In this document: one piece after another, positions 148 through 33,644 of the stretch | How positions within the stretch are numbered: position 1 is the stretch's first letter | Layout of the letters: every line of letters starts with the position of its first letter | Origin: Candidatus Omnitrophota bacterium | Lineage (GTDB): Bacteria > Omnitrophota > Gorgyraeia > 2-01-FULL-45-10 | Direction: 5' to 3' | Length of the DNA: 33,644 nt | NCBI GenBank assembly: GCA_026387165.1 | Contig: JAPLMG010000099.1 | Coordinates: 1-33,644 of the forward strand | Translations under genes and position numbers: made by a program | Notes under the pieces: model-generated | Databases searched by the model: none | Seen by the model: only the letters and a program-made list of their open reading frames with translations | Told to the model about the DNA's origin: nothing

Positions 148-3100
148 TTACAACGATCTCATCGCCAGAGATTGAGCAAGATGCGCGTTACGGGCGTCCT
201 CGGGGCTTACGCGGCCCGCCCTGGGTATCACTCTTATGATGCCCTGTTTCAGGTTATCGGCCGTTAACGGCTGGACCTGATCATCATCGGCGACATAATT
301 CAGAAAAGCATTTAAGAGAGTTAGGTTTACCCCATTTTCGCCTTCTATCTGGCCATAGGCTATCTTGAAAGCCAGATCATACAACATGACGAACGGCACA
401 TAATGCTCGTTTGGATCGAGCCGCACGTTCAGGACCGTGCCCGCCACGTCATTCAGGCTTGCATGAGCTATCCACGCGGCATATCCCTTTATCGCCTCGA
501 GGGTCGCGTCTCCCGCTATCGTCACGACGAAGGTATCTTTGTCATTCAACCTTCTCTTTGCCTCCTCGATCCGTTCGGCAAGCCTTTGCCCTTCGCCACG
601 CGCTATTATCAGCTTTCCGTCGTAATGTTCCTCAAGATACTCTTCCGTCGCCTGGGCGACGAGCCTGGCATCGTCCTCCATTTCCGGATTGAGCGCGGTA
701 TCATGGGCGATGATCACCGGCTTACGCCCTATATCGGACAGGACGATGGCGTTGATCGTCGTCTCCAACGCCGTCAGCTCCACCTTCATTCTCCGGACGA
801 CTTCCGGCAGAAGCGTTTTACCTGTTTTAGCGATAGCGGCGTCGACCATCCCGTCAACGGTTTCGCTGACCGGGAATTCGGCATATATTGAAGACGGCAC
901 GCGAGCTCCGGGGTCAGCGGGCGGCGCTATGATCGGCGCCCTCTCTTCTTCCGTGGGCGCGAAAGCCAGGATCTCCCTCTCGTAACCAAGCCCGGAGAGG
1001 GCTATCTTTATCCGGGCGGCATCTTTTCTCATGCCCTCAATAAGCCCATTCCGAATATCTTTTATAAAAGAAGGCATCTTATTCCCAAGGCCTGCCACGC
1101 CGCCGCCTATCACAATATTGTCCGCAAAGCCCTCTTTTCTCACCTGCCAATATCTTACGTATGCCGCAATGCCCATACCGAACTCTCTTGCCGCCGTTTT
1201 GATCAATCTCCTGGCGATCATATTGCCTTTGCCCGCGAGCCTGTTAATATCCGTTAACTCCAGCTCGGTCACGTCCTTCTTATCCGCCTGCCTCAATAAT
1301 TGCGCGCCGTCCACATCTTTGGAAATTTGCCGCCGCATTCTCTTGATAAGTGTGGGGCCCGCCATGCGCGACTCAAAATATTCTTCGCCTTCTTTCAAAC
1401 CCGGGATTTCTGCCGAGGCCCGATACACATATCTTCCGTCCGGGGACCTTATGACCATATGGCCTATCTCGCTGACCATATTTCCCATGATTTTGTCGCC
1501 AACATAAGACTTGCCTTCTCTTATTACGCCATTTCCTATGCCCGTGCCCCATGTAACGAATGTGATGTCGCCGGTATTCGGCATAGTGCCGCGCGCGCCC
1601 GCTTCTCCCAAAGCGCCCATGCTCGCGTCATGTCCCACTATTACAGGCACGTGCCTTGAATATCTTTCGAGGAAACGCTTCTCAAGCCGGCTCTTCAACG
1701 GAAAGCCGGAGAGCGGTATATTCTCTGTATTGCCTATAATGCCGGTCTCGGGATCTAAAGGCCCGGGCGAAGCTACGCCTATCTTTACCACCTTCTCCTC
1801 GCCTACGCGCTCTATTACCCGCTCTATCTGGGACCATAACGCCTCAAAGAGCGCTTCGGCCGACTCTTTCGGCGTCGATACTTCCGGGACTTTGGCAAGC
1901 AGATCCGCATTTAGATTAACCGCCGCCGCGCCTATCTTGGTTCCGCCCAGGCTTACGCCCACCGAAACGCCTAAAGAAGCCGTGTCGAGCGTCCGCTGAA
2001 TTTTCACTATATCGGCCACATTGCTCATCGCCACATCATTTGTAAATTCATTTAAGGCCGCTAAAATTATTTGGCGGGTATCGCTTTCTCTATCTATGCC
2101 TTCCCCGGGGGTATTCAGATATCCGACCGCTTCTCCGACAGTGCTGAATCTGCCGGCCAACGCCAGTATCTCTACATAAGCCTGTTCATAATCCGATTCG
2201 TCCTCGATAAAAGAGACTGGGCCTTCCCACACATTATTACGTTCAATGTAACTCAACACGGAATCTGTGGAAACAGGACTTACTATGTTTTTATTATTGG
2301 CTCTGACCGCTCTTCTAACGAAGATTATGAGCTTGTCCAAAGCCATAGGCGCAAAACCGGTGGAATGGGCGCCAGCCAGCGACACGGTAGCTTCGCCGAC
2401 AGCCCCTTTGGTTGTCGAATAAGGATAGACTCTTTTATTACTTATAGCGTTGACGATGCGCACTATGCCGCTATTCGTGCTTCCGTTTGTCGCGGCCGCT
2501 ACCTGCCGCTCCTTGGCGTCTCTAAGAAGATGAGCGGGCCGCTTTGCGCCTTTTGATTTTAAATTTCTCCGCGCCTCTTTCGCAAGATCAACGATAAAGG
2601 AGCCAGGCCCTTCTGCCGGCCCGCGCTCCTCATATGCGGCAAGGTATTCATAAACGTCTTTGACAACTTCGGGCTTCACATTTAAAAAACGCAATAGTTC
2701 TATTGTAATAAGAGAAGCCGTTGCCGCGTCATCATGCAGATCGGCGACGAAGATGCCGTTATCGCTGGCGTGGCCCCATATCGCCGTACCATCTCCAAGC
2801 GTATAGATCGGCTTTCCGCTTGTCCGCAGGATATGGATACGCGGCTGGTGTTCCGCCCCTTTCTCTATTCGCTCGTTTGTGCCCAATAGCAGATCTTGGT
2901 ACGCTTCTCTCAGGGATGACACCATAAAAAAAGATTTCAAAATTTTGCTTGTAGGCCCCGCGAGGCCGCCCATGTTGATCAGATTTTCTACCAGGCCTTG
3001 CCTGAAATAATTCTTTTCTATCCTTGTGTCGAGATCGTCATGAATGCCCTGATCCGTTATGCCTACCAGCGGCACGGGTCTTCCGGCGGCATCCAGGGTA

Positions 3101-3666
3101 AATGGCTTCGTATCCTTTGATGCAGTGGCTACTGTCACCTCCCGCGAGGCCTGAGCATCAAACAGTCTTTTAATAATGGCCGGGGCGAGAGCCTTGACGG
3201 CGGCCGCGTTCCTATTCAACGTCCCTATTTCTCTTTCAGAAACCCGGTAGCTCAGCTTTCCGCGCGCCGCGATATGCTTTTCTATAGACGAATCCACGTC
3301 GCTCATAAACAGGCGAAGCGCTGCCGCGGCCGTAAGCGGTATTCCCCTCGCGTCGGCTTTTTCACGCACTCTATCAAGCCATCTTTCTATAATATAGTCC
3401 GCCCAAGCCCTATTATCATCATCCGCACGCTCCTCTGCAAGCCTTCTAACGGGACGATTAAGAAGGCTTGTAAAGAGCGGCGGCGCAAGCATGCCGCCCT
3501 TCGCGCTTTCCGGTCCGGTGGTGATCCGGGTTTCTTTTTTGGTATCGAGCGCGGATGTCATCGGTATCTCTGCGAACGCGATGTTTGTAAAAATAAAAGA
3601 GCCGGCGACAATTGACAATATCGCCTTCTTAAATCGCATGCATGACGGTAAATTTGCAGGATCCAT
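148..3666 (-). CDS. Exported multidomain protein (1172 aa): signal peptide, degenerate zincin-like module, ROK-family sugar kinase, conserved C-terminal domain
   Basis: Strong RBS (AGGAGGAGAAGAGGAT) before ATG 3666; an alternative ATG lies at 3639. Signal peptide RFKKAILSIVAGSFIFTNIAFA. ROK motifs SLGGTKI, GVASPGPLD, HDAxxxALGE, GTGIGNG, EIGHM, IGGGVA. The C-terminus is homologous to that of ORF 10249..12855. TAA stop. Confidence 0.9.
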   Translation of the reverse strand: MDPANLPSCMRFKKAILSIVAGSFIFTNIAFAEIPMTSALDTKKETRITTGPESAKGGMLAPPLFTSLLNRPVRRLAEERADDDNRAWADYIIERWLDRVREKADARGIPLTAAAALRLFMSDVDSSIEKHIAARGKLSYRVSEREIGTLNRNAAAVKALAPAIIKRLFDAQASREVTVATASKDTKPFTLDAAGRPVPLVGITDQGIHDDLDTRIEKNYFRQGLVENLINMGGLAGPTSKILKSFFMVSSLREAYQDLLLGTNERIEKGAEHQPRIHILRTSGKPIYTLGDGTAIWGHASDNGIFVADLHDDAATASLITIELLRFLNVKPEVVKDVYEYLAAYEERGPAEGPGSFIVDLAKEARRNLKSKGAKRPAHLLRDAKERQVAAATNGSTNSGIVRIVNAISNKRVYPYSTTKGAVGEATVSLAGAHSTGFAPMALDKLIIFVRRAVRANNKNIVSPVSTDSVLSYIERNNVWEGPVSFIEDESDYEQAYVEILALAGRFSTVGEAVGYLNTPGEGIDRESDTRQIILAALNEFTNDVAMSNVADIVKIQRTLDTASLGVSVGVSLGGTKIGAAAVNLNADLLAKVPEVSTPKESAEALFEALWSQIERVIERVGEEKVVKIGVASPGPLDPETGIIGNTENIPLSGFPLKSRLEKRFLERYSRHVPVIVGHDASMGALGEAGARGTMPNTGDITFVTWGTGIGNGVIREGKSYVGDKIMGNMVSEIGHMVIRSPDGRYVYRASAEIPGLKEGEEYFESRMAGPTLIKRMRRQISKDVDGAQLLRQADKKDVTELELTDINRLAGKGNMIARRLIKTAAREFGMGIAAYVRYWQVRKEGFADNIVIGGGVAGLGNKMPSFIKDIRNGLIEGMRKDAARIKIALSGLGYEREILAFAPTEEERAPIIAPPADPGARVPSSIYAEFPVSETVDGMVDAAIAKTGKTLLPEVVRRMKVELTALETTINAIVLSDIGRKPVIIAHDTALNPEMEDDARLVAQATEEYLEEHYDGKLIIARGEGQRLAERIEEAKRRLNDKDTFVVTIAGDATLEAIKGYAAWIAHASLNDVAGTVLNVRLDPNEHYVPFVMLYDLAFKIAYGQIEGENGVNLTLLNAFLNYVADDDQVQPLTADNLKQGIIRVIPRAGRVSPEDARNAHLAQSLAMRSL
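960..1980 (-). other. ROK-family (glucokinase-like) domain
   Basis: ROK motifs appear in the expected order. The canonical DxGGT Asp is replaced by Ser, and the Cys-rich zinc motif is absent. Confidence 0.85.
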
Positions 3667-3692
3667 ATCCTCTTCTCCTCCTGATTTCGTCT

Positions 3693-6600
3693 TTACGCGG
3701 ATCGTATGAATTCCAGAAGATTATCGTTGAGGCGCCTCAGTTCCGAAGAATCTTTTATCTCAACGGCCGGCAGGGTGAATATGAGCCTCTTGATAAGGTC
3801 TCTGATATCTTCGGGCATCGATTCGGTTATTTTAATTCCGGTAAGTATGGCATAGATCTTCAACAGGGCTTCCCTGTCGTTCCTCTGGACCGCCCTCAAT
3901 GCCGCTATGATGCCTTCAAGCTGTCTGAAGTTGCACTCGCCGAGCTCAGGCTTAAAGACGAGCGACAGGATATTGGCCTTCTCAAGTTGAGCCTGTTTTG
4001 CCGGATCTCTCGTAGCGACATCTATTATGGCGTCCGGATATTTCTTAAGTATACCGGCTATCGTATCTTCCAGCGGCTCCCACCCCTTCCCTATTACCAC
4101 CTTCTCTTTAAAATCATCGCCGCGGGTCAGCTTGTTTATAAGCGTTGCCAAGCCTGCCTGCTCTTCGGGAATAAGCATAGGATCTATTACGTGAAATACC
4201 ATCCTGCTTTTATCAATGGCCGCGGGCGCAAGTATCCTGTGCGCTTCATGGATAGCTTGCATCGACAACTCCGCCGCGCTTACATGCTCTTCCCCCGGCA
4301 GCGCGTTGAGGCTTGAACCAAGAGAGGTCAGACGCACGTCCGTCATCTTCTTCATATCGGCCGACGGCTGCTCGGCGTTGAGCAGGATAAGTTTTAAAAC
4401 CTGCCCCAGGTCCTTTGTTTTGCCGTTAAAAACGTAGTCCGTGGAATTTTTGGACCTCTTTTCCGAGGCCTTAAGCCTCGCCGCAAGTTCTTCGGATTTC
4501 TCTACAAGCGAAGGCAGGAGAGAGTCTGTTTTAGATATCCTGAAGTTTCCGGACAGTATAATATTCACATATTTGTTCTTCGAGTTAATGTTATATACCT
4601 GCCTGATAATATCGGACAGAGTAGTGCGAGTACCGCCGTGAAACAATATGAACGACTTTTTCACCAGATCGATGTCATGCGCGATACCTTCGTTCCTTAT
4701 TCCTACGCTTTCAATGGTATCGCGTATCCCGGCCACAACTTTATCCGCATCGGGCCCGTCTATATGAAGTATCGAAGGCCTGCTGTGCGCCCAGGCGGAC
4801 TTTGCCACGGCGAGCACCGCGCCGGCCACCGCAACGAGGCTCTTCTGGCGCGGCATCGCGGGCATGGCGACAGCGCCGAATTCTTCGAGGGGCTGGTCAT
4901 CCCTTAATATGGCTCCGGCCTTTATCTGATCGGATTCCGTAATGATCTGATCGAGCCGTTTTACAAGCGATTTACCCTCCGGCGTCTTTCCCGCTATAGT
5001 ACCTACGGGAACTAATTTTATCACGCCCCGGTCCGGATCCTGATAAAGATCGGAACACGCGACGCCCTGGCCGGTCGATCTCTCTTTTACTGCCTCTGCC
5101 GCTTTCTTCGCAAGACCGCGCGCGAAATTCCTTTCGCCTTCCGTAGGCACCGTTCCTCTCGGGGTAAATCCCAGGACCTCTATCTCAGGATGAAGCTCCT
5201 TCAGTATCGCGGCGATAAACTCCGCCGCGATACCCTGCGGAATTATAAGATTATGGTGAGCGTCTTCCCTGATATTTTTGATCGCCGCCGCAAGAACAGG
5301 ATTATCTTTAATGAGCCTGTCGTAATCTGGGTCATCCTTCGAAAGCTTGAACCCTTCAGCAGCCACTACGGTTACACCGCCGTAACGCCGCATTCTCGCG
5401 AGCGCCTGCTTCCTGATGCCCTCTATGCTTACAATATGTTCCGGTATAAGCGTCATTATGGTGGGCCTTGAGTACTCTATCTTCCTCTGAAGATGAGGTG
5501 AAAGTTCTTTAAAATTATCGGGATACCTGTTGGCCGCCTGAAGCGCGAGGCTGCCCATATTGCGGCCCATACCTTCGACTATAACGCACCTGTTGCTTCC
5601 CGGCACCGCGGCCGCGCGGTAGACCTCTTCCCTTGCGATCGCGACCGAGCTTAAGACGCCAAGAGCCGTGGTATTCATAGTATCATTATCTATCGTCTTC
5701 GGGATAGCTATCACGGTTATGCCGTACGGCTTCAAAAGTTCCGCCAGTTTTGCGGCTTCGTTGAGATGGTCATTACCGCCTATAACGACTATCGTGCGGG
5801 CGGTGGCGGCTATATTAGCTATCGCCTGTTTAGCTTCGTCCGACCCGTCCTCGAGGCTTTTTCTTGTGGACCCGAAATCGACGCTCGACCAGTAGGGCAT
5901 CCTCGCCGACATCTCCCTGCCCACCGGAACTATGTTGCGCGAGAAATCGCTCTTGATAAGCCCCTCCAGCCCCTTATTAACGCCCGCCACGGCTATACCC
6001 TGCGCGGCGAGCTCTGAAGAGAGATATCCTATGAACGGATTCAGCCCCGCGCAGTCCCCGCCGCTGACAAATACGAGGCATCTATTTTCCGCGCCTGTGT
6101 CGCCCCATGCGGGCCATGCATTCCTCGGATCCTTCAGGTCCGAAACAGCCTTGGCCGTTTGCCGCGAGTTCTCCTCTTCGACCTTACGGAGAGCGGCTAT
6201 TATGCTTCCGAAATGATGGCTATTTTCGCTTAACTCCTCGTAATTCAGATCGCTCCTGTCCCCTACCATGGCATCAAGCCGCTCGACAAAACCGTTGCCC
6301 ATCGATATCAATATGGCCCTGAACTCACTTCCGTCCGGATCGAGTTCGCGAAAATACCCTTTTAAGAAACTTTCCGCAAGCCCGGGGAAGTTAACGGTCC
6401 CCCACTCCCTCGTATCGTCAACGACATCTTCATACTCCCTTATCTTAAGCGCGTCGTATAGGACTCTCGAAACATCGAGAAACCTGTCGGCCGCCCTCTC
6501 CGCAAGAGAGTTCGTGGAGATATCCTGCGCGTCATTGAGATCGCGTAATATGATCCTCCATGCGAGATCATCGTCCGTCCTCAAGCCTATATTGCCTATG

Positions 6601-9600
6601 TGAGGCCAGCGATGAGAATACCCCTGGTCGTGAAAATATCTCAGCGAAAGACCGATCTTCTCATAGATAGATGGAAGGCCCGGACTGATATCTGTCGCTA
6701 ATCCTGCGGGTATATTTACAAGCGCTATACGGCCCGGTTCTACACCGTTGCGCCCAAACTGCAAAAATCCCAATCTATGGTCATCAAACTCCATTCCGCA
6801 AATGACGTATCCTACCGGCCCGTTTTTGTAGCGCAGATCCCTATACCGCCCAACCCCGATAGGAAGATCCGCTCCGCATTTCGATCCGTGGAATCTCTCC
6901 ATCAGCTCATATTCTGTCAGCGCTTCAGGATATAATAGCGATCCGAGCGGTCCCGGATGGCCCGGCCTCACAAGGATAGCGCCGCTCGAATAGCTCTCCA
7001 TGACCCGCCTGACCGAACCCCAGCCTTTATAATCCTTAACGCTGCGTTTATCTTTTTCTACAACCGGCCGCGCGCCTTTTATTCTTAAAAGCCCTAATGA
7101 CATGCCGTCTACCTCGATACGATCCCTGAGCCTGATGTAGACCGTCCGGCCTTCATCCGGCATAGTCTCGTCGTAAGAGACCCTTATCCGGCCTGCGGAG
7201 GAGTCGATTATTTTTTTCAATTTCTCCGGATTCGCGGCCGCAAGCACTTTCATCAGGTCACGCCTGTCTTTAGGCGCCATCCGGTCATATACCTGCGGCT
7301 TTATCCTCAGGGTGGACTTGGTATCGTTCTTCGCGGCGCCTACTTCGATCATCTTAAGAGGTATCCTGCAAAGATATGTGAGGAATTTATTTATCTGTGC
7401 CTTGTCCTGCCGGCTTAGCGGCGGAGATATGCTGAATATATAGTCCCTGAGCTCGTGAGGCTTCGCGCCCTTTATGCGGAGCGGATCCTTCAACAGCTCT
7501 TTATAGAACGCGTTTATGGCGCCGCTCGCGCTCCAAGTGTGCCTGGCTATCGTATCGAGCCAGAGCCTCGTCCATACGATCTCCGGCGAAGCGTTCTCCG
7601 GAAGCTTTATCCTTTTGAATAATCTCCACAGGTGGACGGTCTTGCGCTCCATCATGATCGATGATATGTAATCTATCTGAAGCGAAGAGAGCGCGGGATC
7701 GTACAGCCTTGGCAGGACCTTCCAGCTTTCGGCGCAGCCAAAGCTGCCCTGCCGCGTAAATTTGATGAACTCTCCGGACTTTTTAACGAAATATGCTTTA
7801 ATGTCCGGCCTTATGGAGTCCGAGATATTCCAAAGATTGGCGGCTTTAAAATCGTCCTCCTTATTGCCTATACCATCGACCGAGAAGAGGAGCGCCGAAG
7901 GCTTGCCCAAATTTGTCATCATCGAGCCGTACCTCCCGAAACCGGGGGCCTTATCGACTATGCCGAGCTTCCACAGATTCTCCTGCAGGCCGAACCACAG
8001 GTCGACATATCCGGCCGCTTCTGCGGTATCTGCCTGTGCGAGGACTTCGCCGAAAGACGTTATCCTGTTCTGGATCAGGACGCGCGGGATTATTTTACCG
8101 TCTATCTTTATATTCAGCTTTGCGAAGTTCACGAACGAGGTGGGGACCACAAAATCCCCTCCCACCAAAGCGAGAAAGCCTATGTCCGGCAGGGCCCTAT
8201 CCGTCTTGGGCGCCTTCACGACCATGCCGTTCTTAAGAAAGAACACATCGTACGACGTGCTCTCTATTTTGCGTTCATATTGAAGCTCACCGCCCGATGA
8301 GGACCTCCTCAACTCGTTCAATACGTAATCTTCTTCTATCCTATCGAGCTCTTCATAAAGCTGCTGCGGGTCGAGGCCCATCATCATAACAACGGGCGCG
8401 AATTTATCCTCGAGAAGCTGCCCTTTCCTGTAAAGAGAGAAGATGCTCTCGGCCCTCGATTCAGTGGTACCGACGAATTCGGCCCGGTCTCTCGCCGCGT
8501 ATATGAAAGGGTCTTCAAGCTTCTCTTTTCTCTGCATGAATAGATTGACATACTTGAGCGCGTCTTCCAGGGGCATCGGCCGGCCGTTCCTGGTTTCGGC
8601 CCTCGACCTCTCCCTCGCGAAACCCCTTTCAAGGCGTATCTCAAAGTTCGCGTCGATGAATAGCGATGTCGTATAAAGACTCGGCAGCCTCTTCTCCTGC
8701 GGGACATCAGGATCGTCGTAAAGCGACAGTATACCTTCGATTATAAATATGCCTTCTTCGTGCGGTATGCGCTCCTTTATCTTCCACGGCTTGCCGTTAA
8801 GCTTACCGTCCTTTCCTATATACCCGCCATTTGTAATAGTAACGGCTGTTTCGGCTATCAGCTCTCCGCTGTCCGGATCGATCATGTCTTTGGCGGGGTT
8901 GCCTTTATCGTCCATTATCCGGACGCTGCGGCCTCCGTTTTCCTCAAGAGGCCCGATACGCATAAACGTATCGATCATCCTTAATATGATCTCGCCGATC
9001 TTCGCTCCCTTTTCCACGCCAAGAGTGATTCCGAATTGTTCGACGGCCGCCGCCTCCTCAATGACCTTTCCGGCTTCATCGCGCACCGAAAGAACGGGGC
9101 CCTTCTGCGATTCAACTATATATATTTTTCTCCTGGGCCCGAATAATATGACCGGCGCGCCTTTATCGTCGAGCGTAAGTTTCAGCGTCCCCTTTGCCGT
9201 CTGGCCGTAGACCGGTTTCAGCAGGTCCTGCCCCCTTATAAACGCTTTCATCGAGCTGTTGAAGAGGCCCGCCTCAAATTTTTTCAGCACGTCCTCGGTA
9301 GTTTTTTTGGTCACAGGATCTATCTCCCTGTCGGAAGCCTGCAGAAGCCAGTCGTCGAAGTATATGATCCTGACGTTGGAAAATTCCTCAGACAGTTCCT
9401 TTTGGACGGTCGCGGCTATCGTAGTCTTGCCGGATGCCGCGCTGCCCGTGATGCCTATCGTGATAACGGAAGTTTTCTTATTTTGCCTGTCGGCGGCTCT
9501 GACCTTTCTGATCTTAGGAAACATCCTGCTATCAAAGATCTCGCGGTAGACCTGCTCTTCGTTCAGGCGCTCCCTCTCTTTGTGCGAGAAGCGCCTGTAT

Positions 9601-10220
9601 AGTCTAAAGGTCTTTTCCGAAGCCAGCCGGGCCATGGAGTCCCGCCAGATCGTGTCGAGACTTTCCACCCTGGCGCCCGGGTTTTTATGTTCCGGGGGCA
9701 CCGTTACAACATCTACCGCATAGAGGCTGCCCGAACCGCGCTCCAATAGCGTTTCACCGTCAGCGACCGGCATCCCGGACGGAAAACCCGAGGCCGAGTA
9801 TACCCTTGCCTCCATGGACCCGCCGTAAGGAATATAAAGAACTCCCGCCTTCGGGTCCATCCTGATATTCGCGACATCGAACCTGGCAAGCTCTTCGGCG
9901 AACGACGGTGAAACATCCGCGTACCGCATGATCTCGCGGACGATGTCGGCTGCGGGCATTCTCTCCCTGCCTACCAACAGGGAAGCGTAGAGGTCGAACG
10001 CTATCGACAGGAACTCCTTCTTCGATATGAGCGCGTGATTGAATTCTTCGGAATGTTCATCGGGGTGTGACGACCTGAAGACGGATGGCGCCGCAAGCGT
10101 GGATACTTCGTTTAAACTTTTAGGATCGGCGTAAACTTCCGGGCCGGAGATCTGGCTTAATAGAAAGGCCCAGACCAACAGCCCCGAAATGATATGTCGA
10201 AACATCTTGTTGCCGCTCAT
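3693..10220 (-). CDS. Giant exported multidomain protein (2175 aa): signal peptide, uridine-kinase/PRK-like P-loop domain, kinase-like domain(s), phosphofructokinase domain, conserved C-terminal domain
   Basis: Uninterrupted 6.5-kb ORF. N-terminal FRHIISGLLVWAFLLSQ...VYA. P-loop GITGSAASGKTT..FDDW..IIEGIL. Kinase-like RIKG..HDQGYSHRWPHIGN..LRDL. PFK motifs SGGDCAGLN, GGND, PKTIDND, EGMGR, LIPE, AAEG, LGFTPRG. TAA stop. Confidence 0.9.
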   Translation of the reverse strand: MSGNKMFRHIISGLLVWAFLLSQISGPEVYADPKSLNEVSTLAAPSVFRSSHPDEHSEEFNHALISKKEFLSIAFDLYASLLVGRERMPAADIVREIMRYADVSPSFAEELARFDVANIRMDPKAGVLYIPYGGSMEARVYSASGFPSGMPVADGETLLERGSGSLYAVDVVTVPPEHKNPGARVESLDTIWRDSMARLASEKTFRLYRRFSHKERERLNEEQVYREIFDSRMFPKIRKVRAADRQNKKTSVITIGITGSAASGKTTIAATVQKELSEEFSNVRIIYFDDWLLQASDREIDPVTKKTTEDVLKKFEAGLFNSSMKAFIRGQDLLKPVYGQTAKGTLKLTLDDKGAPVILFGPRRKIYIVESQKGPVLSVRDEAGKVIEEAAAVEQFGITLGVEKGAKIGEIILRMIDTFMRIGPLEENGGRSVRIMDDKGNPAKDMIDPDSGELIAETAVTITNGGYIGKDGKLNGKPWKIKERIPHEEGIFIIEGILSLYDDPDVPQEKRLPSLYTTSLFIDANFEIRLERGFARERSRAETRNGRPMPLEDALKYVNLFMQRKEKLEDPFIYAARDRAEFVGTTESRAESIFSLYRKGQLLEDKFAPVVMMMGLDPQQLYEELDRIEEDYVLNELRRSSSGGELQYERKIESTSYDVFFLKNGMVVKAPKTDRALPDIGFLALVGGDFVVPTSFVNFAKLNIKIDGKIIPRVLIQNRITSFGEVLAQADTAEAAGYVDLWFGLQENLWKLGIVDKAPGFGRYGSMMTNLGKPSALLFSVDGIGNKEDDFKAANLWNISDSIRPDIKAYFVKKSGEFIKFTRQGSFGCAESWKVLPRLYDPALSSLQIDYISSIMMERKTVHLWRLFKRIKLPENASPEIVWTRLWLDTIARHTWSASGAINAFYKELLKDPLRIKGAKPHELRDYIFSISPPLSRQDKAQINKFLTYLCRIPLKMIEVGAAKNDTKSTLRIKPQVYDRMAPKDRRDLMKVLAAANPEKLKKIIDSSAGRIRVSYDETMPDEGRTVYIRLRDRIEVDGMSLGLLRIKGARPVVEKDKRSVKDYKGWGSVRRVMESYSSGAILVRPGHPGPLGSLLYPEALTEYELMERFHGSKCGADLPIGVGRYRDLRYKNGPVGYVICGMEFDDHRLGFLQFGRNGVEPGRIALVNIPAGLATDISPGLPSIYEKIGLSLRYFHDQGYSHRWPHIGNIGLRTDDDLAWRIILRDLNDAQDISTNSLAERAADRFLDVSRVLYDALKIREYEDVVDDTREWGTVNFPGLAESFLKGYFRELDPDGSEFRAILISMGNGFVERLDAMVGDRSDLNYEELSENSHHFGSIIAALRKVEEENSRQTAKAVSDLKDPRNAWPAWGDTGAENRCLVFVSGGDCAGLNPFIGYLSSELAAQGIAVAGVNKGLEGLIKSDFSRNIVPVGREMSARMPYWSSVDFGSTRKSLEDGSDEAKQAIANIAATARTIVVIGGNDHLNEAAKLAELLKPYGITVIAIPKTIDNDTMNTTALGVLSSVAIAREEVYRAAAVPGSNRCVIVEGMGRNMGSLALQAANRYPDNFKELSPHLQRKIEYSRPTIMTLIPEHIVSIEGIRKQALARMRRYGGVTVVAAEGFKLSKDDPDYDRLIKDNPVLAAAIKNIREDAHHNLIIPQGIAAEFIAAILKELHPEIEVLGFTPRGTVPTEGERNFARGLAKKAAEAVKERSTGQGVACSDLYQDPDRGVIKLVPVGTIAGKTPEGKSLVKRLDQIITESDQIKAGAILRDDQPLEEFGAVAMPAMPRQKSLVAVAGAVLAVAKSAWAHSRPSILHIDGPDADKVVAGIRDTIESVGIRNEGIAHDIDLVKKSFILFHGGTRTTLSDIIRQVYNINSKNKYVNIILSGNFRISKTDSLLPSLVEKSEELAARLKASEKRSKNSTDYVFNGKTKDLGQVLKLILLNAEQPSADMKKMTDVRLTSLGSSLNALPGEEHVSAAELSMQAIHEAHRILAPAAIDKSRMVFHVIDPMLIPEEQAGLATLINKLTRGDDFKEKVVIGKGWEPLEDTIAGILKKYPDAIIDVATRDPAKQAQLEKANILSLVFKPELGECNFRQLEGIIAALRAVQRNDREALLKIYAILTGIKITESMPEDIRDLIKRLIFTLPAVEIKDSSELRRLNDNLLEFIRSA
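4950..6085 (-). other. PfkA-superfamily phosphofructokinase domain
   Basis: Motifs SGGDxxGxN, GGND, IPKTIDND, VEGMGR and LGxxxRG in the correct order. Confidence 0.85.
6200..7150 (-). other. Protein-kinase-like fold domain (atypical kinase or phosphotransferase)
   Basis: LRIKG lysine strand, HxxGxxHxxxHxGN catalytic-loop-like segment, and LRDL Mg-binding-like segment. Confidence 0.5.
8470..9470 (-). other. Uridine kinase/phosphoribulokinase-like P-loop domain with a large insertion
   Basis: IGITGSAASGKTT, YFDDW, KPVY, IIEGILSL, LFIDA..IRLER..RE. Confidence 0.8.
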
Positions 10221-10248
10221 TAATATGGTATATGCGCAAGTTTAAGCG

Positions 10249-12855
10249 TTACAGCGATATAAGGGCCTGTTGGGCTGCCTTATAAGCTGCCGCGGCTTCT
10301 GAAGGATTGACCGGCACTATCTTAGGCAGTATCATAAGAACGCCTCTTGATAACAATGCCTCGACATCATCTTTGGTGAACGGTCTGTTGTCAGGGTTTA
10401 TGGCTATCCTGTTTAAAGACAGGAGGACGTCATCGATCGAAGAGTCGTAGGCTATTCTCAAGGCCACTTCGTACAGCCCTATTATGGGTATGTACCTGTT
10501 GTCCGGATTCTGTATATTGAGGACCTTACCTATCCTGGTGAGGTACTGGCCCACTTCATTCATAGTGCTGTTTCCCGCGATAGTCACCACCTTGTAAGGA
10601 ATGCCTGCTGCCTGCAGCTCCTGCGCGGCCTGAGCGATATTATCCAATAGCTTCCTGCCCGTTGCCCTGATGTCTACCAGCTTGCCTTCAAGATATTTGT
10701 TTATCGGCCGCTCACCAGCCTGCGCCACCTGTCCGGGCGCGACCGCCGTATCATGCGCGATTATGACCGCCCTGTTGTCGAGCGCGCCTCTCAGTGCCAA
10801 TGAAGCGAGATACTTCTGCAACGAATCTCTTTCCGGTATAGTCGAAACCTGATAGATCTGCTCGGCCGTCACCTTTCCGGCGCCTTCCCCGGCGGGATAC
10901 TTCTTCTCGCCGTCCCGGCCGGCCCTGGATAGCCGCGCAAGCTCTCCGGTAAAGCTTTCATAGAACGCCTTTATCAGCGCTTTTACATCCTCATCGGCCT
11001 CATTGCACTCAAATAGTACGGTCGGCGACACTTCGGCCATGCGCCTTATATTCGGCATGGTCATGGCATCATTGGTCTGGTGCACATTTGCGCCCTCGAC
11101 AGTAGCGCCGTCCCCTTTTCTCGGCGGAACGAGCTGCCTCTTCTCGACGGCCTTCCCGCCTCCGGCATCGACCTCGATATCAACCGTGTTCTTAAATCCC
11201 CTGCCGGTCACCTTATTGTCGATGAGCCTTCTCGTATTTATGAAGATGTTTACTGTCTTGTCGCCTAAAAGCGGCCCGGGCGTATTTGATTCCGCCTGAT
11301 TGGCAAGATTCCCCTCAAGCCCCTTATGCGACCAGAGCGGGAAGAGGGCAGTCTGCACGATCCACCCCTGCCTGCCAAGTTCTGATCCGTAGGCTTCTCT
11401 TCTCAGGCCCCCGACAAATTCCTGCAGGCCCTCACTGCCGACGAACAGGTTTAGCCTGTCGCGCCCTTTTAATTTCCCGGCGAGCTGCGCGGCGATATCT
11501 TTGCCCAGCTGTCTTGCCTGCGTTGCCGTATTCATGGCATTTTGCTTTCCGTCAGCGCCTATGGCGGGAGATCCGGGATTGCCCGAGCTAACCAGAAGCT
11601 CTGTTTTGCCCTGACCTATAAGATCCTGCGCATACTTTCTTTCATTGTCTCTCCACCCGGCAACTCTGTCTGACGTATATTCGCGGACCTTCTTCACGTT
11701 AGGGTTAGAATTGGCATCGACCCTGAGAAGAGAGGTAAAGACCGTCACCAGATCCGTCCATAATATATCCAATGCCGCCTGCTGGTTTGGCGTCATGCCG
11801 ACGTCAATTACCTTGCCTGTGCCATCGGTGATCTTTGTGCCTTCCACGGTAAGGATCATCACGGGCATCGCTTCAGCGACGCTCTTCACCCTTTTCCTGT
11901 CCTTGTCATATGTGGGCGATGATCTGTCCAGAAGCGCCATGCCGACACATTTCTTACCGGCCGGACTGCTCACAAGCGTTTCCAGTACTGCCGGCGGTTC
12001 ATAGACCTCATCGGCAAGATCATGAATACCCATGGAAATAACATCTCTTTTGTTCGAGCCTTCCATTATATACTGTTCCCATTCGGTTCCCGCGCGGCGC
12101 AGGGACTCCGTATTTGTCATGAATACGATATGCTCGGCGCCAAGCAAGTACATGGCGCCATGCAGGAATCTCCCTGCGCTGACGGGAAGCGATCCATCCT
12201 CATCGGAGAAATCATTCGCCCGGTCGAATTTGTCATGGAGCCTGGCAAATTCTACGGAATCCATTGAAGGCAGGAAGATGCCAGCTATAGTCTGTACCGT
12301 ATAGTAGATGGAGGTCTTTCTATGCATGTTTCTGCCGCCTATATCGGGGCTGAGCTCTATGACTAAGGGCGCGACGGTGGTCTTTTCGGTCTTGCTTCTC
12401 GCTTGCGCCGCCGCTATTGCTATGTCCTTACTGGGCCCGCCGTTAACTATCGCTATACGCTTATTAAATCCTTCCTGCAGTGAACGGCTTGCCACCTCCA
12501 GGCCTTCCCAGGTCGCCCCGGATCGTGTTATGTCCACAAAGATCGTGGAATCCGGTTTGATCTTGCCTTCGCTGTAGAGGCGCGCGAACTCCCTCGCTGT
12601 CGCCGCGTGATACCAGACCGGCGCGCCGGCCGGCTTATTTTCATTGTACATCTTAATCAACGACCACATGAACTGATCATTGGCGCCTATTCCGTTGGTC
12701 ACTATAGCTTTGAGATTTTGGCCATTCGGGCCGAACGCCTGCTCTATGAAAGAGCGGATCTTTCCGTACCATTCAGGTTTAAAATAGTTTTCGAAAAATT
12801 GCAAAACAGTCTGCTTAGTCCCGGTCCCGCGGTAGTTATATCCTCCCCGCGCCAT
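10249..12855 (-). CDS. C-terminal fragment: glucose-6-phosphate isomerase-like (SIS) domain plus conserved C-terminal domain
   Basis: Motifs VTNGIGAN (cf. GIGGS), DITRSGAT (cf. SKSGTT), DIGGR, EQYIMEGSNK (cf. QLxxESxGK) and NPNVKK (cf. QPGVExxK). Linker DGEKKYPAGE precedes the C-terminal domain. No RBS is evident at 12855. Confidence 0.7.
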   Translation of the reverse strand: MARGGYNYRGTGTKQTVLQFFENYFKPEWYGKIRSFIEQAFGPNGQNLKAIVTNGIGANDQFMWSLIKMYNENKPAGAPVWYHAATAREFARLYSEGKIKPDSTIFVDITRSGATWEGLEVASRSLQEGFNKRIAIVNGGPSKDIAIAAAQARSKTEKTTVAPLVIELSPDIGGRNMHRKTSIYYTVQTIAGIFLPSMDSVEFARLHDKFDRANDFSDEDGSLPVSAGRFLHGAMYLLGAEHIVFMTNTESLRRAGTEWEQYIMEGSNKRDVISMGIHDLADEVYEPPAVLETLVSSPAGKKCVGMALLDRSSPTYDKDRKRVKSVAEAMPVMILTVEGTKITDGTGKVIDVGMTPNQQAALDILWTDLVTVFTSLLRVDANSNPNVKKVREYTSDRVAGWRDNERKYAQDLIGQGKTELLVSSGNPGSPAIGADGKQNAMNTATQARQLGKDIAAQLAGKLKGRDRLNLFVGSEGLQEFVGGLRREAYGSELGRQGWIVQTALFPLWSHKGLEGNLANQAESNTPGPLLGDKTVNIFINTRRLIDNKVTGRGFKNTVDIEVDAGGGKAVEKRQLVPPRKGDGATVEGANVHQTNDAMTMPNIRRMAEVSPTVLFECNEADEDVKALIKAFYESFTGELARLSRAGRDGEKKYPAGEGAGKVTAEQIYQVSTIPERDSLQKYLASLALRGALDNRAVIIAHDTAVAPGQVAQAGERPINKYLEGKLVDIRATGRKLLDNIAQAAQELQAAGIPYKVVTIAGNSTMNEVGQYLTRIGKVLNIQNPDNRYIPIIGLYEVALRIAYDSSIDDVLLSLNRIAINPDNRPFTKDDVEALLSRGVLMILPKIVPVNPSEAAAAYKAAQQALISL

Positions 12856-12893
12856 GTCGGCGCCGACCGCAGACTGATACTGCTGAAGCGCTA

Positions 12894-15800: not shown

Positions 15801-16376
15801 ATCGACAACGCTCGCCTTGTTCCTGGCGGCCTCTTCCAGCAGGTCTCTTTGCAATTCTCTTTCATTTCCGCCGTAAACATCCAATAGCCTGCCGTAATTA
15901 TCTGTTTTTTGAAGCGCTTCGCTGAATTCATTTCCGGAGGCTCCGGCCGGATAACTCTTCTCTCCATCCTTCGGAGGTTCGGAGACGGCTGTGCCGCCGC
16001 TGAGGCGCGCGTAAAGGATGTGGAAAGCGCTCTTGAATTCAGCGTTGCCGGTTATGGCTGCCGCTATTTCCTTCGCACGGGCTTGCGGCTGATCGGCACT
16101 GATTAAAGCGGCCTCCATCGCGCCCCTGTACGCATCGAGCATGATCGCTTCGTTCTGAGCGTATCCTCTCTCGCTCGCAATCATGAGGGTCTTATCGAGC
16201 CACCTCTGGACCCCAAAAGACTCCCAGCCTCGCTCAACCCGCCGCTCTCTCGCTATGATCTCTTTTATAAGAGCTTCAAGCTGATCCTTATCTACGCCGT
16301 CAACCTCTGAAAGGATCACCTTTATGCGCTCCTGGCTTATGCCGACGAGCCTCGATAACAGTATCGGGGCGAGCAT
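12894..16376 (-). CDS. Middle fragment: YvcK/GlmR-CofD (UPF0052)-like domain with insertions
   Basis: Motifs LLSGGSA, VTNVDDGGAT, PPLGD and GPGSFFTSL..L. Preceded by linker DGEKSYPAG. Confidence 0.7.
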   Translation of the reverse strand: MLAPILLSRLVGISQERIKVILSEVDGVDKDQLEALIKEIIARERRVERGWESFGVQRWLDKTLMIASERGYAQNEAIMLDAYRGAMEAALISADQPQARAKEIAAAITGNAEFKSAFHILYARLSGGTAVSEPPKDGEKSYPAGASGNEFSEALQKTDNYGRLLDVYGGNERELQRDLLEEAARNKASVVDIVIGRFGDDAKKLRQKLSGVSQTAQGPPDFSSDVLLLSGGSASRLWAPILLGLNPGLSINALVTNVDDGGATQHIINALRENGYGITPPLGDQVNSLFNSFLKADKIFTMLDDSGRIKIGYMGLSEEELLGMSLRDVMAIALRQAKIRDNLFGQALAAMDAGDFEKAGECLEKIKVTLAGIGLAKTSQAVNLDMRYDGAEALLAAALEQRKPRNLESIRRSHERNLSADFLTFSANLLNLADIVDKGIPGFDGKPIFNMKTLLKQNQSIRNLLLLAVLYDEGVFVRDLRLPEGRNAVDTKDKMRRYQMAVNRLAKAVGITNGQVSMSSFKPSVVYARYQDNVLAWWENISLDEKIQRNTRFHTENNGNSLVVTIDQRHGPSMVIRNPDGTDEASRISGTPLIKTLSRGQDILIKTLDSHGNILNAIEVGLDKEGKAYFSLNGDHWVVDESESGDVTYLVKDDKKIRLKNDNPGCGYKDKVLGFNGEGLGALFVPRFIAMQTHVTETVNLSKIVEYGFAEVKEENIVVSAEGGNEVREEHRVFSAPSAEAKSISRDDTNQVAVEMINNVSSGGYILTGPGSFFTSLCSHLLCDGVVEAIKAARARGVRSIFVFNPNEDNETVGLSLSELINFIEKISGAKFAELFDTALISDQVDYIKLLDYDKEYDDLTRKGDYKSDIASRVGIALRNKPDGIEKLGLSVFKLLIDEYIEERSIAVPYGVERYEWAIRNDPELLSRVTAQSAQFATLLFDRIYLTTRAAGDPANMAKKSTAPLTVDDAAVKYLSDSGVDVRRASIYGLVVSINRGDGKAKSSLGYLPELLKVMPLTSEIASMTFEQDISRLASVLKMDKARVRDAVRSKIDTNTLLTNFAESVGIKRTAALKNMAQAGLAEVTGDETYILTDALFSRVLLEKFISIQIKGLRLTDLTPLRLERIILDSVDVSGLIEQLSLTYGKSSLSLTAARPTLSS

Positions 16377-16427
16377 GCTCCCTTTTACATTTTTAGCGTC
16401 CGCCGCGCCCGTATCGGATAGTATCTC

Positions 16428-17963: not shown

Positions 17964-18033
17964 AAACACATTCCTCCATTGTTTGTAAATTCGTGACCTA
18001 CCTTTTTATTTCTAACTTTCTGTTAGTACTAAT

Positions 18034-18061
18034 ACTATACTCTATATATACGATGTGTCAA
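18034..18061 (-). promoter_or_regulatory. Putative sigma70 promoter for the 17963-to-148 transcription unit
   Basis: Minus strand reads TTGACA (18061-18056), 16 nt, then TATAGT (18039-18034) in an AT-rich intergenic gap. Palindrome TTAGTACTAA lies at 18023-18032, just downstream. Confidence 0.6.
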
Positions 18062-18105
18062 CCAAAAATAACAAACTATTTTGTTCTTTAACATTTTCCA
18101 CAATC

Positions 18106-21100
18106 TTACGCCGCGCTTAAAATCGCTCTCAGCGCCCGCTGATGCTCGCGCACCTCTTTATCGTAATATATCGGCACGGCCTTCGGTACATATATGAATA
18201 TTCTTCTCATCTCATCTCTCGAAACGCCGGGTATATCAGGCAATTCCCCGACGGTAAACAGCTCAAACAACGCCTCGTAGCTATTAGTGTCAACGAAGAC
18301 GCCGTTAATGTCGCCCAACTCCAGTATTACAAGCGGCGGGATAGCAGATCTTAAGGTTTCGTAATCCTTTATTTCACCTTTCCTGATCCTTAGTCCAACA
18401 TGTCCGGGCGTTCCACTAAATAAGGTAGATAGGCCGTTGACCTCTTCTGCCGTACGCGCAAACGCATGATCGACATATCCTTCCAGGCCAAGGGCCGAGA
18501 TGTACCGTTTCGCGGCATCGTCGTTTCTGACTCTCGGGTCGGTTATTGCCACAACTTCCTTAATAGGATCATCCCCCTTATCGTGTATATCCATCTTCTG
18601 CCATCTGGCGCGTATCTTGTCTCTCAAAGAATAGAGCATGCCCGATTCAACCACGCCTTGTGTCGTTATCGAGACAGCCTTATCCCTCTTTTCAAACAGG
18701 GTATTGAGAGCGGCACTATTGGCGTGAGCGAAGCTCGGGCTTATGGCCTTCGTGCGGCGCTCAAGATCGGCCTTCAGGGCCTCTATGCTGGCCGGCGCCA
18801 CTGCCGGGAGCAGCCGCTCGATCTCAGTGACTTTGGCCGTAAGATCACCGAGCGGTATTGAATCTATATTCGAAGCGTTTATTATCGCTATGTCGGCATG
18901 CGCTTCCCTGAACGCCTTGTCAGACAGTGCCTGGAGGTGCGCTATCGTCTCCCGGATGCCGGCGCCGGACCCTATGTCGAGCACCGCGCCGTATTTTATG
19001 CCGCGTCTCTTCGCCTCGGCCATGAGCTCGGCCGGATTTGACGACTTCATTACGTAGATTTCCGCGCTGCCATTAAATATCCTGTCAATTTCCCGCGCAA
19101 TGGCGGGTCTCTCAAGCGGCGGCACAGAGTCCCCCGGCATACCGACAATGTACGACTTTAGAGATTTCGGCTTCGCGGCTTCACCGGTCTTTATTACCGC
19201 CGAAGACCTCACGAACTCTGTATCCTCGTCTGCGACTATACTGTAATTCCCGGTCTGGGCGGTAACAAATAGATAAGGATTCCGGGCGTTCAATTCTCCG
19301 AGCGCCGTCTTTCCGTCGCCCGAAACTATTCGCGCTCTTCCTGATATCAAATTCAACGTATGATAGCTCTTAAACGTATCGAACTTGGCCGTCCGGCCTT
19401 TCTTAAGCTTCACGCTTTCGGCGTCGATGTTTCTGTCTATTTTTTTGCCATATTGATTCAACACCCACATTCCCAGCATTTCGACAGGCGCAGCCTCAAT
19501 AGCCTCGTCAAGACTAAAATCGACGGTCTGAAGATGTATCCTCCCCGATCTTATGCTCAATACGGAGTTGCATCTTATAGCAATGGTTATGCCGTCTCTG
19601 CTCCTTATCTTGCGTATAACTCTTAAGAGATCGCCACTCTTATGGTTTATGGGCAATTCCCGCAGTTCGTCCGCCAGGGCCTGCAATCGCCCGAAACGAG
19701 TGCCGAGTTGATAGTAATGCCACGGCTTCGGATAGCTCCGAAGCTTCACGGCGTCAAAAAATCTTCTGCCGGCCCTTTCTATCGCGCCTTCGCCGATGAG
19801 CGGCGTTATAGACGGGTCGTATTGTATATTTTTCGGATACTTAAGCTCGTAAGGCCGGGTGAACCGCTCCACGAATCTCGGCATCACCTCTAAATGCTCA
19901 GATCTCTCCACGCCTTCGCGCCTATATTCGGTCAGGCCCAGGACGTCGTTGCTCACGAGCACCTGTCCGTCGGCCTCATTGCCGCTTCCTATACCTATCG
20001 TAGGTATGGTAAGATGTTTTGATACCATCTCAGCCGTACCATCATATACCATCTCAAGAACTATGCTGAATGCGCCTGCTTCTTCCAGCGTGGCGGCGTC
20101 TTCGAGGAGTTTCATCATCTCTATCTTGCTGCCGCCGAATACGCGCGGCCTCCCGAACTGCGGCATGTAGCCGATGTGGCCCATGACGGGGATGCCCGCG
20201 CTAACGAGCGCCCTGACTATCCGGCCCATGTCTCTGCCGCCTTCCATCTTTACCGCATCGGCTCCGGCCTCTATCATGAGTCTCGCGCTGGCTAACGCCT
20301 CCTCGGGTGTATCGTATGAACGATACGGCATGTCGCCTATAACTACCGTCCTCGATCTATCGGCGCCTTCGGAGACCATCCTGATATGTTTTAACATCAT
20401 CTCCATCGTGGCGTAATTTGTCGTCGGATAACCGTACTTGACCATCGCGACCGAGTCTCCGACTAAGAGCATCTCGATGCCCGCGTTGCTGAATGCCCGC
20501 GCCGTTACGGCATCGTAGGCCGTAAGCATCGTTATCTTCTCGCCATTGGCCTTCAATTCCTGTATACGCCGTATCCTGTCGTACGCATCCTCTTCGGCGG
20601 GATAGGCCTTTTCACCGGATGCCGGGACGGACGCGAGTAATATCGGCTCGGCATTCTCTACCATCCTCTTCCCTGAGCGCCAGTTGAGCTGGAGCTCTTC
20701 GTCAACCAATCTCTTGTCTCCCAAAAGCGCCATCATGGCGCCTATATAAGTTCCGTGGCCGAACAATATTACGGTTTTCCCCTTATGCTCCCTGTTAACC
20801 ATGTCTAAAAATTTTCGCGCTCTGATAAGAAGATCCGCAAAGCTTTCTCCGCCCCGCGGCCTGACGTTCGCATCAAAATGTTCACGGTACCTGATCGCAA
20901 GCTTTTTGTCTTCTTCGGAAAGGTCCCGAGGAACTTTATTTTCCCATACCCCGAACGATATCTCGTTCGTCATCCTGTCCGTTATTACGGGAATCTCTCT
21001 GCCCGTCCTCTCTTTGACAAGTTTAGCGAACGCCGCCGCGGTATCTTTTGAGCGGCCGAGCCCGCTTGAGAGAATGACAGGCTCGTCGCCTGATCTTATC

Positions 21101-33015: not shown

Positions 33016-33075
33016 TCGTCATTGCGAGCCCGAGCGAAGCGCATGGTACATGGCTCCGCTCCTCGCAATGACGAT
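33015..33075. repeat. Intergenic palindromic element with 14-bp perfect terminal inverted repeats (REP/MITE-like)
   Basis: ATCGTCATTGCGAG (33015-33028) and CTCGCAATGACGAT (33062-33075). Confidence 0.75.
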
Positions 33076-33083
33076 AAGTAACG

Positions 33084-33644
33084 TTACGCCGCCGCTAACG
33101 CGGTTCTCCTGGCGTAGTAGTTCCTGTTTAATTCTCCGTAGTCCTTAGGCTCCGCCTTAGGTATCAGCATGATAAACCTTAACGCTTTGTCATAAGAATC
33201 TAATTTTACCATCGGTATATTCGGCGGATCTTTTCCGGCGGCTATATCCAATGCCACGGATAACATCTCGAGTATCTTTACATCGAGATGTATTGACGGG
33301 TCTTTATTATCCTTAATGAAGGCTTCCAGTTCAGCGGGGTCTATTGCCGCGATAAAAGCCTTCGCTTCCGTAGGCGTGCTCCTTAACGAGTCGAAGCTTG
33401 ACGATGCAACGGTTCCTTTGGACGCCAGGATGACTACATTCGAGAGCTTCGTATTGGCCTTATCGGCTTCCTTCAATACGGAAGCCGCTATCTCTTTTGA
33501 GTTGGATCTTACAAATACCACGTTATCAAGGCCCATCGAGCGGAGGATATCCGGGATAGATTCGATCTGCTGTATGACCGGGTTCATCGCCTGATGCTGG
33601 AGGCTGCCTGTTTCGTTGTAGCCCGGTATCCAGTCTGTCTCGAG
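33084..33644 (-). CDS. 3' end of another member of the same protein family (partial; runs off the window)
   Basis: The frame is open to the window edge (LETDWIPGYNETGSLQHQAMNP..). It ends with the family signature FIMLIPKAEPKDYGELNRNYYARRTALAAA and a TAA stop. Confidence 0.85.
   Translation of the reverse strand, partial: LETDWIPGYNETGSLQHQAMNPVIQQIESIPDILRSMGLDNVVFVRSNSKEIAASVLKEADKANTKLSNVVILASKGTVASSSFDSLRSTPTEAKAFIAAIDPAELEAFIKDNKDPSIHLDVKILEMLSVALDIAAGKDPPNIPMVKLDSYDKALRFIMLIPKAEPKDYGELNRNYYARRTALAAA

Follow-up and report, generated by a model that had tools for sequence, protein, structure and literature searches.

Introduction

Giant and long membrane-associated multi-enzyme proteins of the Omnitrophota, the 'Archaeovorins' and 'multi-enzyme metabolic clusters', have been described in two preprints (bioRxiv 10.1101/2023.11.21.568195; bioRxiv 10.64898/2026.06.07.730766), and the accessible text of Seymour et al. 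(2023) treats giant Omnitrophota open reading frames (ORFs) in general terms only. Why these bacteria fuse cytoplasmic-type enzymes into huge proteins with export signals is, in the accessible parts of both preprints, an open question. Here we analyse a contig of 33,644 nucleotides (nt) from a Candidatus Omnitrophota bacterium (GenBank assembly GCA_026387165.1, contig JAPLMG010000099.1; the whole stretch is referred to as the window), in which five gene units end in a common C-terminal signature. As modelled, this signature closes a folded domain, termed here the end domain, for which a docking or address role is tentatively put forward.

As far as the accessible text of the preprints goes, the window proteins share with the giants described there the phylum, a tiling of sugar-metabolism and kinase modules, an N-terminal signal peptide or membrane segment and an arrangement of genes in rows. 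Neither preprint, in the same parts, describes a shared C-terminal domain or a conserved bracketing leader, and proteins of the window family are mostly 1000-5500 amino acids (aa) long, against at least 10000 aa for the preprint giants. A constant end domain together with a constant leader offers a handle on the question of why the enzymes are fused. Close relatives of the window proteins carry the name Candidatus Omnitrophica.

The C-terminal domains (CTDs) of the type IX secretion system (T9SS) fold as a beta-sandwich of approximately 70-100 residues. Signals of the type I system (T1SS) occupy an unstructured last ~60 residues of proteins that have no N-terminal signal peptide and usually carry repeats-in-toxin (RTX) repeats upstream. 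Tails of the type IV system (T4SS) are disordered, charge-biased C-terminal stretches, again without an N-terminal signal peptide.

Results

The signature is confined to the ends of long proteins

Seven large ORFs, all on the minus strand, make up the window. The initial annotation had noted on all five genes a hydrophobic strand, an invariant proline ~24-25 residues from the end, an amphipathic helix and a final (S/A)(A/L), and had read the pattern as a candidate secretion or targeting signal. The five C-termini that it quoted were found in the translations, at stops 148, 3693, 10249, 18106 and 33084. Two further ORFs, P0003 and P0004, lack the tail, but both belong to the gene whose stop is at 10249 (unit 3, discussed below). 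The features are as follows.

148..3666, minus strand: unit 1 (P0001, 1172 aa), with a Sec-type leader, a ROK-family sugar kinase module and a subfamily A C-terminal domain, read from the translation
151..750, minus strand: C-terminal alpha/beta domain of unit 1, reaching the last residue (alignment A2); tail signature at 151-285
3693..10220, minus strand: unit 2 (P0006, 2175 aa), with a leader, a uridine-kinase-like P-loop, a phosphofructokinase (PFK) module and a subfamily B C-terminal domain
3696..4295, minus strand: C-terminal region of unit 2 (alignment A6); tail signature at 3696-3830
10249..12855, minus strand: last piece of unit 3 (P0002, 868 aa), with divergent cargo and a subfamily A C-terminal domain but no leader of its own
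10252..10896, minus strand: C-terminal domain of unit 3 as modelled (215 aa; AlphaFold2 on alignment A4), with strand E186-191 and helix H198-214; tail signature at 10252-10386
12894..16376, minus strand: middle piece of unit 3 (P0003, 1160 aa), with a CofD/YvcK-like module (Pfam and NCBIfam); its apparent end is not reproduced by public contigs
12925..12936, no strand: join within unit 3, between P0003 and P0002, bridged by no contig of public runs X1-X3
16428..16430, minus strand: in-frame TAG within unit 3, between P0004 and P0003; GAG (Glu) elsewhere
16428..17969, minus strand: first piece of unit 3 (P0004, 513 aa), with a Sec-type leader and a conserved head domain of ~480 aa
18106..33015, minus strand: unit 4 (P0007, 4969 aa), with a leader, a head domain, at least eight enzyme modules and then the C-terminal domain
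18109..18678, minus strand: C-terminal domain of unit 4 (a row of alignment A3, with BLAST links to L033 and L027); tail signature at 18109-18243
33084..33644, minus strand: unit 5 (P0005), comprising the final 186 aa encoded by a gene continued on contig C62, with a subfamily C domain; tail signature at 33087-33221

A hidden Markov model (HMM) was built from the five window tails alone. Its best matches outside the window were the exact C-termini of giant ORFs, on contigs C81 (E 7e-4), C306 (E 0.93) and C31 (E 3.2), where the best match to reversed sequences had an E of 4.3. Across the genome the tail, called by eye and then by HMM, was found on 13 of the 29 stop-ended ORFs of at least 1000 aa and on 2 of 6104 shorter ORFs, both of them window pieces; only the absence elsewhere is informative in this count, because the HMM was built from the same ORFs. 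Searches with phmmer and jackhmmer within the genome linked close tail pairs only, and single-sequence hhalign returned only weak, in-register tail matches.

Of 201 Omnitrophota genomes searched, 20 held matches to a model of 16 tails; with few exceptions these lie in open frames 1000-11000 aa long. By family, matches were obtained in 8/9 genomes of the same family, in 2/2 of a second family of the order and in 6/10 of a third family; the largest other family gave none in 63 genomes. All 27 tail matches evaluated in other genomes ended between -1 and 4 residues from a stop codon (0 residues in 17, 1 in 8, -1 in one and 4 in one). This set comprises the 28 other-genome matches with a locus minus a partial match, L030; matches without a locus were left out.

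The same placement was seen on a larger scale. P0001 and P0002 can be aligned with relatives over the full length of their final ~200 residues, and a profile of this P0001/P0002-type (family A) alignment was searched against 1.84 billion representative proteins (E <=0.001). It matched 107 proteins, two being the window's own and 52 being at least 1000 aa long. The end of the profile fell on the last or next-to-last residue in 101 of the 107, the other six being truncated matches; none was internal. The strictly C-terminal position anticipated in the initial annotation was thereby borne out.

The elements of the signature fared less evenly. The proline lies 23-25 residues from the end in 87/89 family-A and 41/46 other tails and is the most conserved residue of family A (88/89, 99%), but two subfamilies lack it, so that it is not invariant. 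Endings in AA, SL, SA and AL were as described, with SV occurring in addition. The terminal helix proved only moderately amphipathic (mean z 1.05 relative to shuffled sequences), and that of P0005 is not amphipathic.

In the structure model the signature closes an alpha/beta domain

AlphaFold2 prediction for the last 215 residues of P0002, using a 32-row alignment, gave a model with a predicted local distance difference test score (pLDDT) of 93.2 and a predicted template modelling score (pTM) of 0.90. The modelled end domain is an alpha/beta structure of ~190 residues with five to six strands, and pLDDT stays at ~90-97 across its last 40 residues. The hydrophobic strand of the initial annotation corresponds in the model to E186-191, and its helix to the closing helix H198-214. 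On this model the signature is no free linear signal: it consists of the domain's final beta-strand, a turn of Pro(-Lys/Arg) and the helix that closes the fold, and the near-fixed distance from the proline to the end is a consequence of the fold. A model of the truncated P0005 piece was poor (pLDDT 70.6), had no fold match and was not used.

Conserved positions of the tail are mostly small or hydrophobic; within family A those of the helix are mainly Ala and Leu, with Glu, Tyr and Lys/Arg conserved too. We infer that the conserved helix positions face the domain core as a buried stripe. Family A also conserves an Asp after strand 1 (90%) and an Arg-x-x-Gly after strand 2 (Arg 90%, Gly 87%); the Asp and Arg vary in subfamily C, and the polar residues are not kept in the P0007 type either.

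No match to a known catalytic domain rose above threshold in Pfam, NCBIfam or PDB sequences. For the end domain, neither a Pfam scan of the five tails, taken up to E 10, nor an NCBIfam scan of the seven proteins gave anything over threshold; neither the profile nor P0002 had a credible match among PDB sequences; and an ESM Atlas search gave no score of at least 0.9. With respect to the HAD superfamily, the Pfam scan gave a sub-threshold match to Hydrolase_6 (E 0.11, set against a 27-bit cut-off). With regard to HAD motif I, there is the one Asp after strand 1; a second Asp was not seen in the aligned rows, and no HAD chain occurs among the fold-search rows listed. The end domain is apparently non-catalytic.

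Fold searches returned generic flavodoxin-like matches only (Foldseek, TM <=0.37; VIA, best Z 6.7), with no chain at Z >=8 among 48161 compared. The domain resembles flavodoxin-like three-layer alpha/beta folds, such as type I periplasmic binding lobes, CheY-like receivers, B12-binding domains and lumazine synthase, in its parallel strands and helices. The best match was 5bra_A (Z 6.7, root-mean-square deviation 3.9 over 150 residues), and receiver domains scored Z 5.2-5.7. Unlike receivers, however, the end domain does not conserve the phospho-acceptor position. The flavodoxin-like arrangement is common and provides no evidence of kinship. The end domain is a real, lineage-restricted domain family, and our literature search found no published description of it.

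Several subfamilies coexist in one genome

Profile-profile comparison of A2 (subfamily A) with A3 (the P0005 and P0007 types) gave a probability of 96.8% and an E of 2.9e-10 over 159 columns. The P0006 type (A6) matched A3 at E 2.3e-4 over the last 58 columns; its match to A4 is in register over 165 columns but not significant (E 0.0094). Homology of the whole P0006-type region with the other subfamilies is no more than suggested by these alignments. What all subfamilies conserve is the terminal strand and helix. A single genome holds at least four to seven tail subfamilies, with only 13-30% identity between them, and the family as a whole forms ~100 clusters at 50% identity, spread over families of a class.

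Conserved leaders and divergent enzymes precede the end domain

The check for co-occurrence with signal peptides, set in the initial annotation, had a favourable outcome. A leader, that is, a hydrophobic, signal-peptide-like N-terminal segment whose core is itself conserved, was found on 43 of the 54 profile matches of at least 700 aa and, within the genome, on 10 of 13 giant ORFs that bear the tail, the remaining three having open or ambiguous 5' ends. Leader type pairs with tail type in subfamilies A and B: the P0006 subfamily has its own type of each, both common to its relatives P0115-P0117. Behind the leader, a head domain of ~480 residues is present in P0004 (16428-17830) and at the start of P0007 (31426-32900), and its motif recurs in 33 of the 54 relatives of at least 700 aa. 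It matches no Pfam family; a ChaN/Tiki-superfamily match (E 0.096) is sub-threshold and serves as a lead only.

The modules encoded across the window are chains of cytoplasmic-type enzymes. P0001 combines a hydrophobic segment at its N-terminus, a ROK match (Pfam, E 2.7e-26) and the domain profile match at residues 970-1172 of 1172. P0006 matches PFK (Pfam, E 4e-32), and the modules of P0007 (Pfam, NCBIfam) include RmlD, uridine-kinase-like, UDPGP, 3-dehydroquinate (DHQ) synthase, HAD, His-phosphatase and PanB, among others. The cargo of P0002 has no Pfam match. Carriers of the end domain as a whole include ROK, PFK, transaldolase, PanB and other enzymes, in frames of up to 10000-11000 aa. Ordinary, unfused PFK (in two copies), DHQ synthase and PanB are also encoded in the genome, on contigs C26, C46, C168 and C170, and their scores with the Pfam models are far above those of the fused versions. 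The fused enzymes thus form a second, divergent set beside the standalone ones.

Unit 3 is one gene, probably broken in the assembly

P0004 and P0003 lie in the same frame and are parted by the single TAG at 16428-16430. High-scoring segment pairs span this site in 34 of 42 BLAST hits, with Glu at the position in the four homologue alignments inspected. In contigs of public runs X1 and X3, position 16430 reads A>C, restoring GAG; both runs come from one study, and X1 may be the source sample. The TAG is a base error or minor variant of the assembly. Read-through of the codon was considered and rejected for this site, given the Glu of the homologues and the GAG of the public contigs.

The second break separates P0003 from P0002. 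Positions 12926-12935 are unbridged in the contigs of X1, X2 and X3, where the contigs on either side continue into other sequence. In the relative P0012 (3678 aa), counterparts of P0004, of the end of P0003 and of P0002 follow one another colinearly: P0004 is 82% identical to its residues 12-521, and P0002 aligns with its residues 2782-3672 at 49% identity, the start Met of P0002 being internal in P0012. Between the parts that match P0003 and P0002, P0012 has ~80 residues. Genome G021 contains an open frame of 3684 codons with the same arrangement. The join at 12925-12936 is probably an assembly artefact, a misassembly or deletion that splits P0003 from P0002.

P0004, P0003 and P0002 are the pieces of one leader-to-tail gene ending at 10249, and the window therefore holds five leader-to-tail units, all five ending in the signature. 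The two seeming exceptions are assembly artefacts, which matters for the annotation of this genome. Two further pairs of giant ORFs in the genome, on contigs C62 and C251, are also split by a single TAG.

Unit 5 is cut by the edge of the window. P0005 is joined to contig C62 by an exact 141-nt overlap with the C62 end, and on C62 the same gene begins, at its 5' end, with an ORF that carries a leader but is in a different frame. With the leader at 25124-25597 and the body at 25492-30750, P0005's gene is apparently frameshifted. Contig C199, which has 39 nt in common with the window end, carries a near-copy of it that could represent either strain variation or a repeat.

Comparison with known sorting and docking modules

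In common with T9SS CTDs, the end domain is a folded, strictly C-terminal domain on diverse cargo behind an N-terminal Sec signal, with its most conserved motifs in the last secondary-structure elements. However, the T9SS model TIGR04183 (Por_Secre_tail) was not matched, the NCBIfam scan of the seven proteins (E 0.001) returning enzyme families only; the phylum is a different one; and the end domain, at ~190 residues, has an alpha/beta fold. Unlike T4SS tails, the last 40 residues are modelled with the high pLDDT given above, and the net charge of the last 25 averages +0.3 (range -4 to +4). T1SS signals differ likewise, since leaders are present here, the tail is structured in the model and no RTX-type Pfam match was obtained. 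The end domain is therefore not a T9SS CTD, lacking both the model match and the fold, and it is unlike T4SS tails, the other analogue named in the initial annotation.

A further likeness is to cellulosomal dockerins and to the docking domains of polyketide synthases and nonribosomal peptide synthetases, which are small terminal non-catalytic modules carried by many enzymes, with several specificity types per organism. Such a likeness would explain why head and tail bracket the cargo. The end domain differs from dockerins in fold and size and has no Pfam match to PF00404, the dockerin model with its duplicated calcium-binding loops, and binding is putative here; we know of no cohesin-like partner for it. 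The resemblance to T9SS CTDs and dockerins is in logic only.

A putative docking or address module

We tentatively propose that the end domain serves exported multi-enzyme proteins as a folded module for docking or addressing, a reading to which we give slightly less than an even chance. The family plan comprises a Sec-type leader, often with the head domain, then interchangeable cytoplasmic-type enzyme modules, and the end domain last. The leader would export the chain via Sec or anchor it in the membrane. The folded end domain might then be recognised whole by a partner, which could be a second end domain, a head domain, or a scaffold or receptor of the envelope, and this binding would fix the place of the enzyme chain in the manner of dockerins or assembly-line docking domains. 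Several subfamilies in one genome may act as different address codes. The idea of recognition put forward in the initial annotation is retained in part, as the domain is strictly terminal, accompanied by leaders and apparently non-catalytic; it has been modified in that a folded domain takes the place of a tail read by its length, the fixed distance arising from the fold, and targeting itself is something that we infer. In practical terms, the end domain defines the family by sequence, provides a small, well-folding bait for binding and localisation work, and its subfamilies could show which enzyme chains belong together.

A broader and rather doubtful version of this proposal is a phylum-specific sorting and assembly system, in which the leader (with or without the head) and the end domain would bracket interchangeable central-metabolism enzymes and deliver them to an envelope-bound extracytoplasmic assembly, the subfamilies being address codes that decide which chains sit together. 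If true, Omnitrophota would export a second set of enzymes of core metabolism, with docking of heads and tails as its organising principle.

Several points weigh against a docking role. No partner, transporter, chaperone or receptor was identified, and the neighbours of the genes in a near-complete relative (G033) are ordinary: resistance-nodulation-division (RND) efflux, glucoamylases, a solute-binding protein and a two-component system. The profiles were found in part of the phylum only (15-20/201 genomes), mainly in one order. The conserved tail positions are the mostly small or hydrophobic ones noted above, and if these are buried, their conservation alone does not indicate an exposed binding surface. 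Leaders were called from hydropathy and visible AxA-type ends rather than by a trained predictor. Finally, leader and tail could be co-inherited by simple descent.

The last of these points can be taken further, to a frame in which leader and end domain are merely constant ends between which cargo has been swapped by recombination, the domain aiding only the folding or solubility of long chains. Relatives are indeed alike in head and tail and unlike in the middle, with P0013 and P0012 matching unit 3 of the window at its ends and otherwise only in places, and the pairing of leader and tail types in A and B accords with this. The domain has, however, been kept over the ~100 clusters and the families of a class, with the proline at 99%, which argues for selection on the domain itself and leaves the frame only a slim chance. 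Slimmer again is the chance of a linear C-terminal tag, a degron or secretion signal in the last few residues that would be recognised directly, either by a protease or chaperone of PDZ type or by a system resembling T1SS or T4SS. The endings are restricted (SL, AA, SA, SV, AL) and the proline keeps its 23-25 residues from the end; against this, the last 30 residues are part of the modelled fold at pLDDT ~90, the leaders are foreign to T1SS substrates, Pfam scans revealed no RTX repeats and the last 25 residues carry hardly any mean net charge (+0.3).

A more substantial rival, though an unlikely one, is a translocation signal: a folded C-terminal domain read by an export machine of the envelope or outer membrane and perhaps then removed, as for T9SS CTDs. 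It takes the idea of the initial annotation to its strongest form. In its favour, cargo of great diversity is flanked by a Sec-type leader and a conserved domain of strictly terminal position, the unusually conserved leader core hints at a dedicated route, and the West-Roberts preprint, in its accessible text, reports type II secretion and pilus genes beside giant Omnitrophota genes. Set against these are the lack of a match to the T9SS or any other sorting-signal model, an alpha/beta fold in place of a beta-sandwich, and the 13-30% identity among the tail subfamilies of one genome, which is awkward for a single receptor. Moreover, no conserved cleavage motif stands ahead of the domain (the Gly-Glu-Lys-x-Tyr-Pro, or GEKxYP, linker is there in 2/69 relatives), and no machinery turned up, the PorU, PorV and SprA families not having been searched for. 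We consider it distinctly improbable that the domain is instead a regulatory module, comparable to ACT or CBS domains, in which the C-terminal edge of the sheet would hold a metabolite or cofactor with a phosphate group and the activity of the fused enzymes would be adjusted accordingly. The Asp of strand 1 and the Arg-x-x-Gly of strand 2 in family A occupy the usual ligand positions of such folds, and the best fold matches, all with Z <7, are ligand-binding folds (lobes of sugar-binding proteins, receivers, B12-binding domains). Yet these polar residues are not retained in subfamily C and the P0007 type, cross-subfamily conservation sits in the terminal strand and helix, and regulation needs neither a strictly terminal position nor an export leader.

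Neighbouring genes and a junction motif

At locus L047 of the near-complete relative (G033:C4:93000-112999), the genes immediately upstream of a row of giant genes with the tail form an RND efflux set, made up of an outer-membrane factor, a membrane-fusion protein and two pumps of AcrB type. This placement may be due to chance.

The GEKxYP linker recurs between enzyme modules, in the gaps between Pfam domain ranges, with 16 copies in 6 ORFs of the genome. As a universal processing site ahead of the end domain it was rejected, given its presence there in only the 2/69 relatives already mentioned. The linker is a lineage-specific junction motif, and its copies in the window are located at the following positions.

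29008-29025: GEKxYP linker
27250-27267: GEKxYP linker
26362-26379: GEKxYP linker
23227-23244: GEKxYP linker
22075-22092: GEKxYP linker
20599-20616: GEKxYP linker
15948-15965: GEKxYP linker
10894-10911: GEKxYP linker

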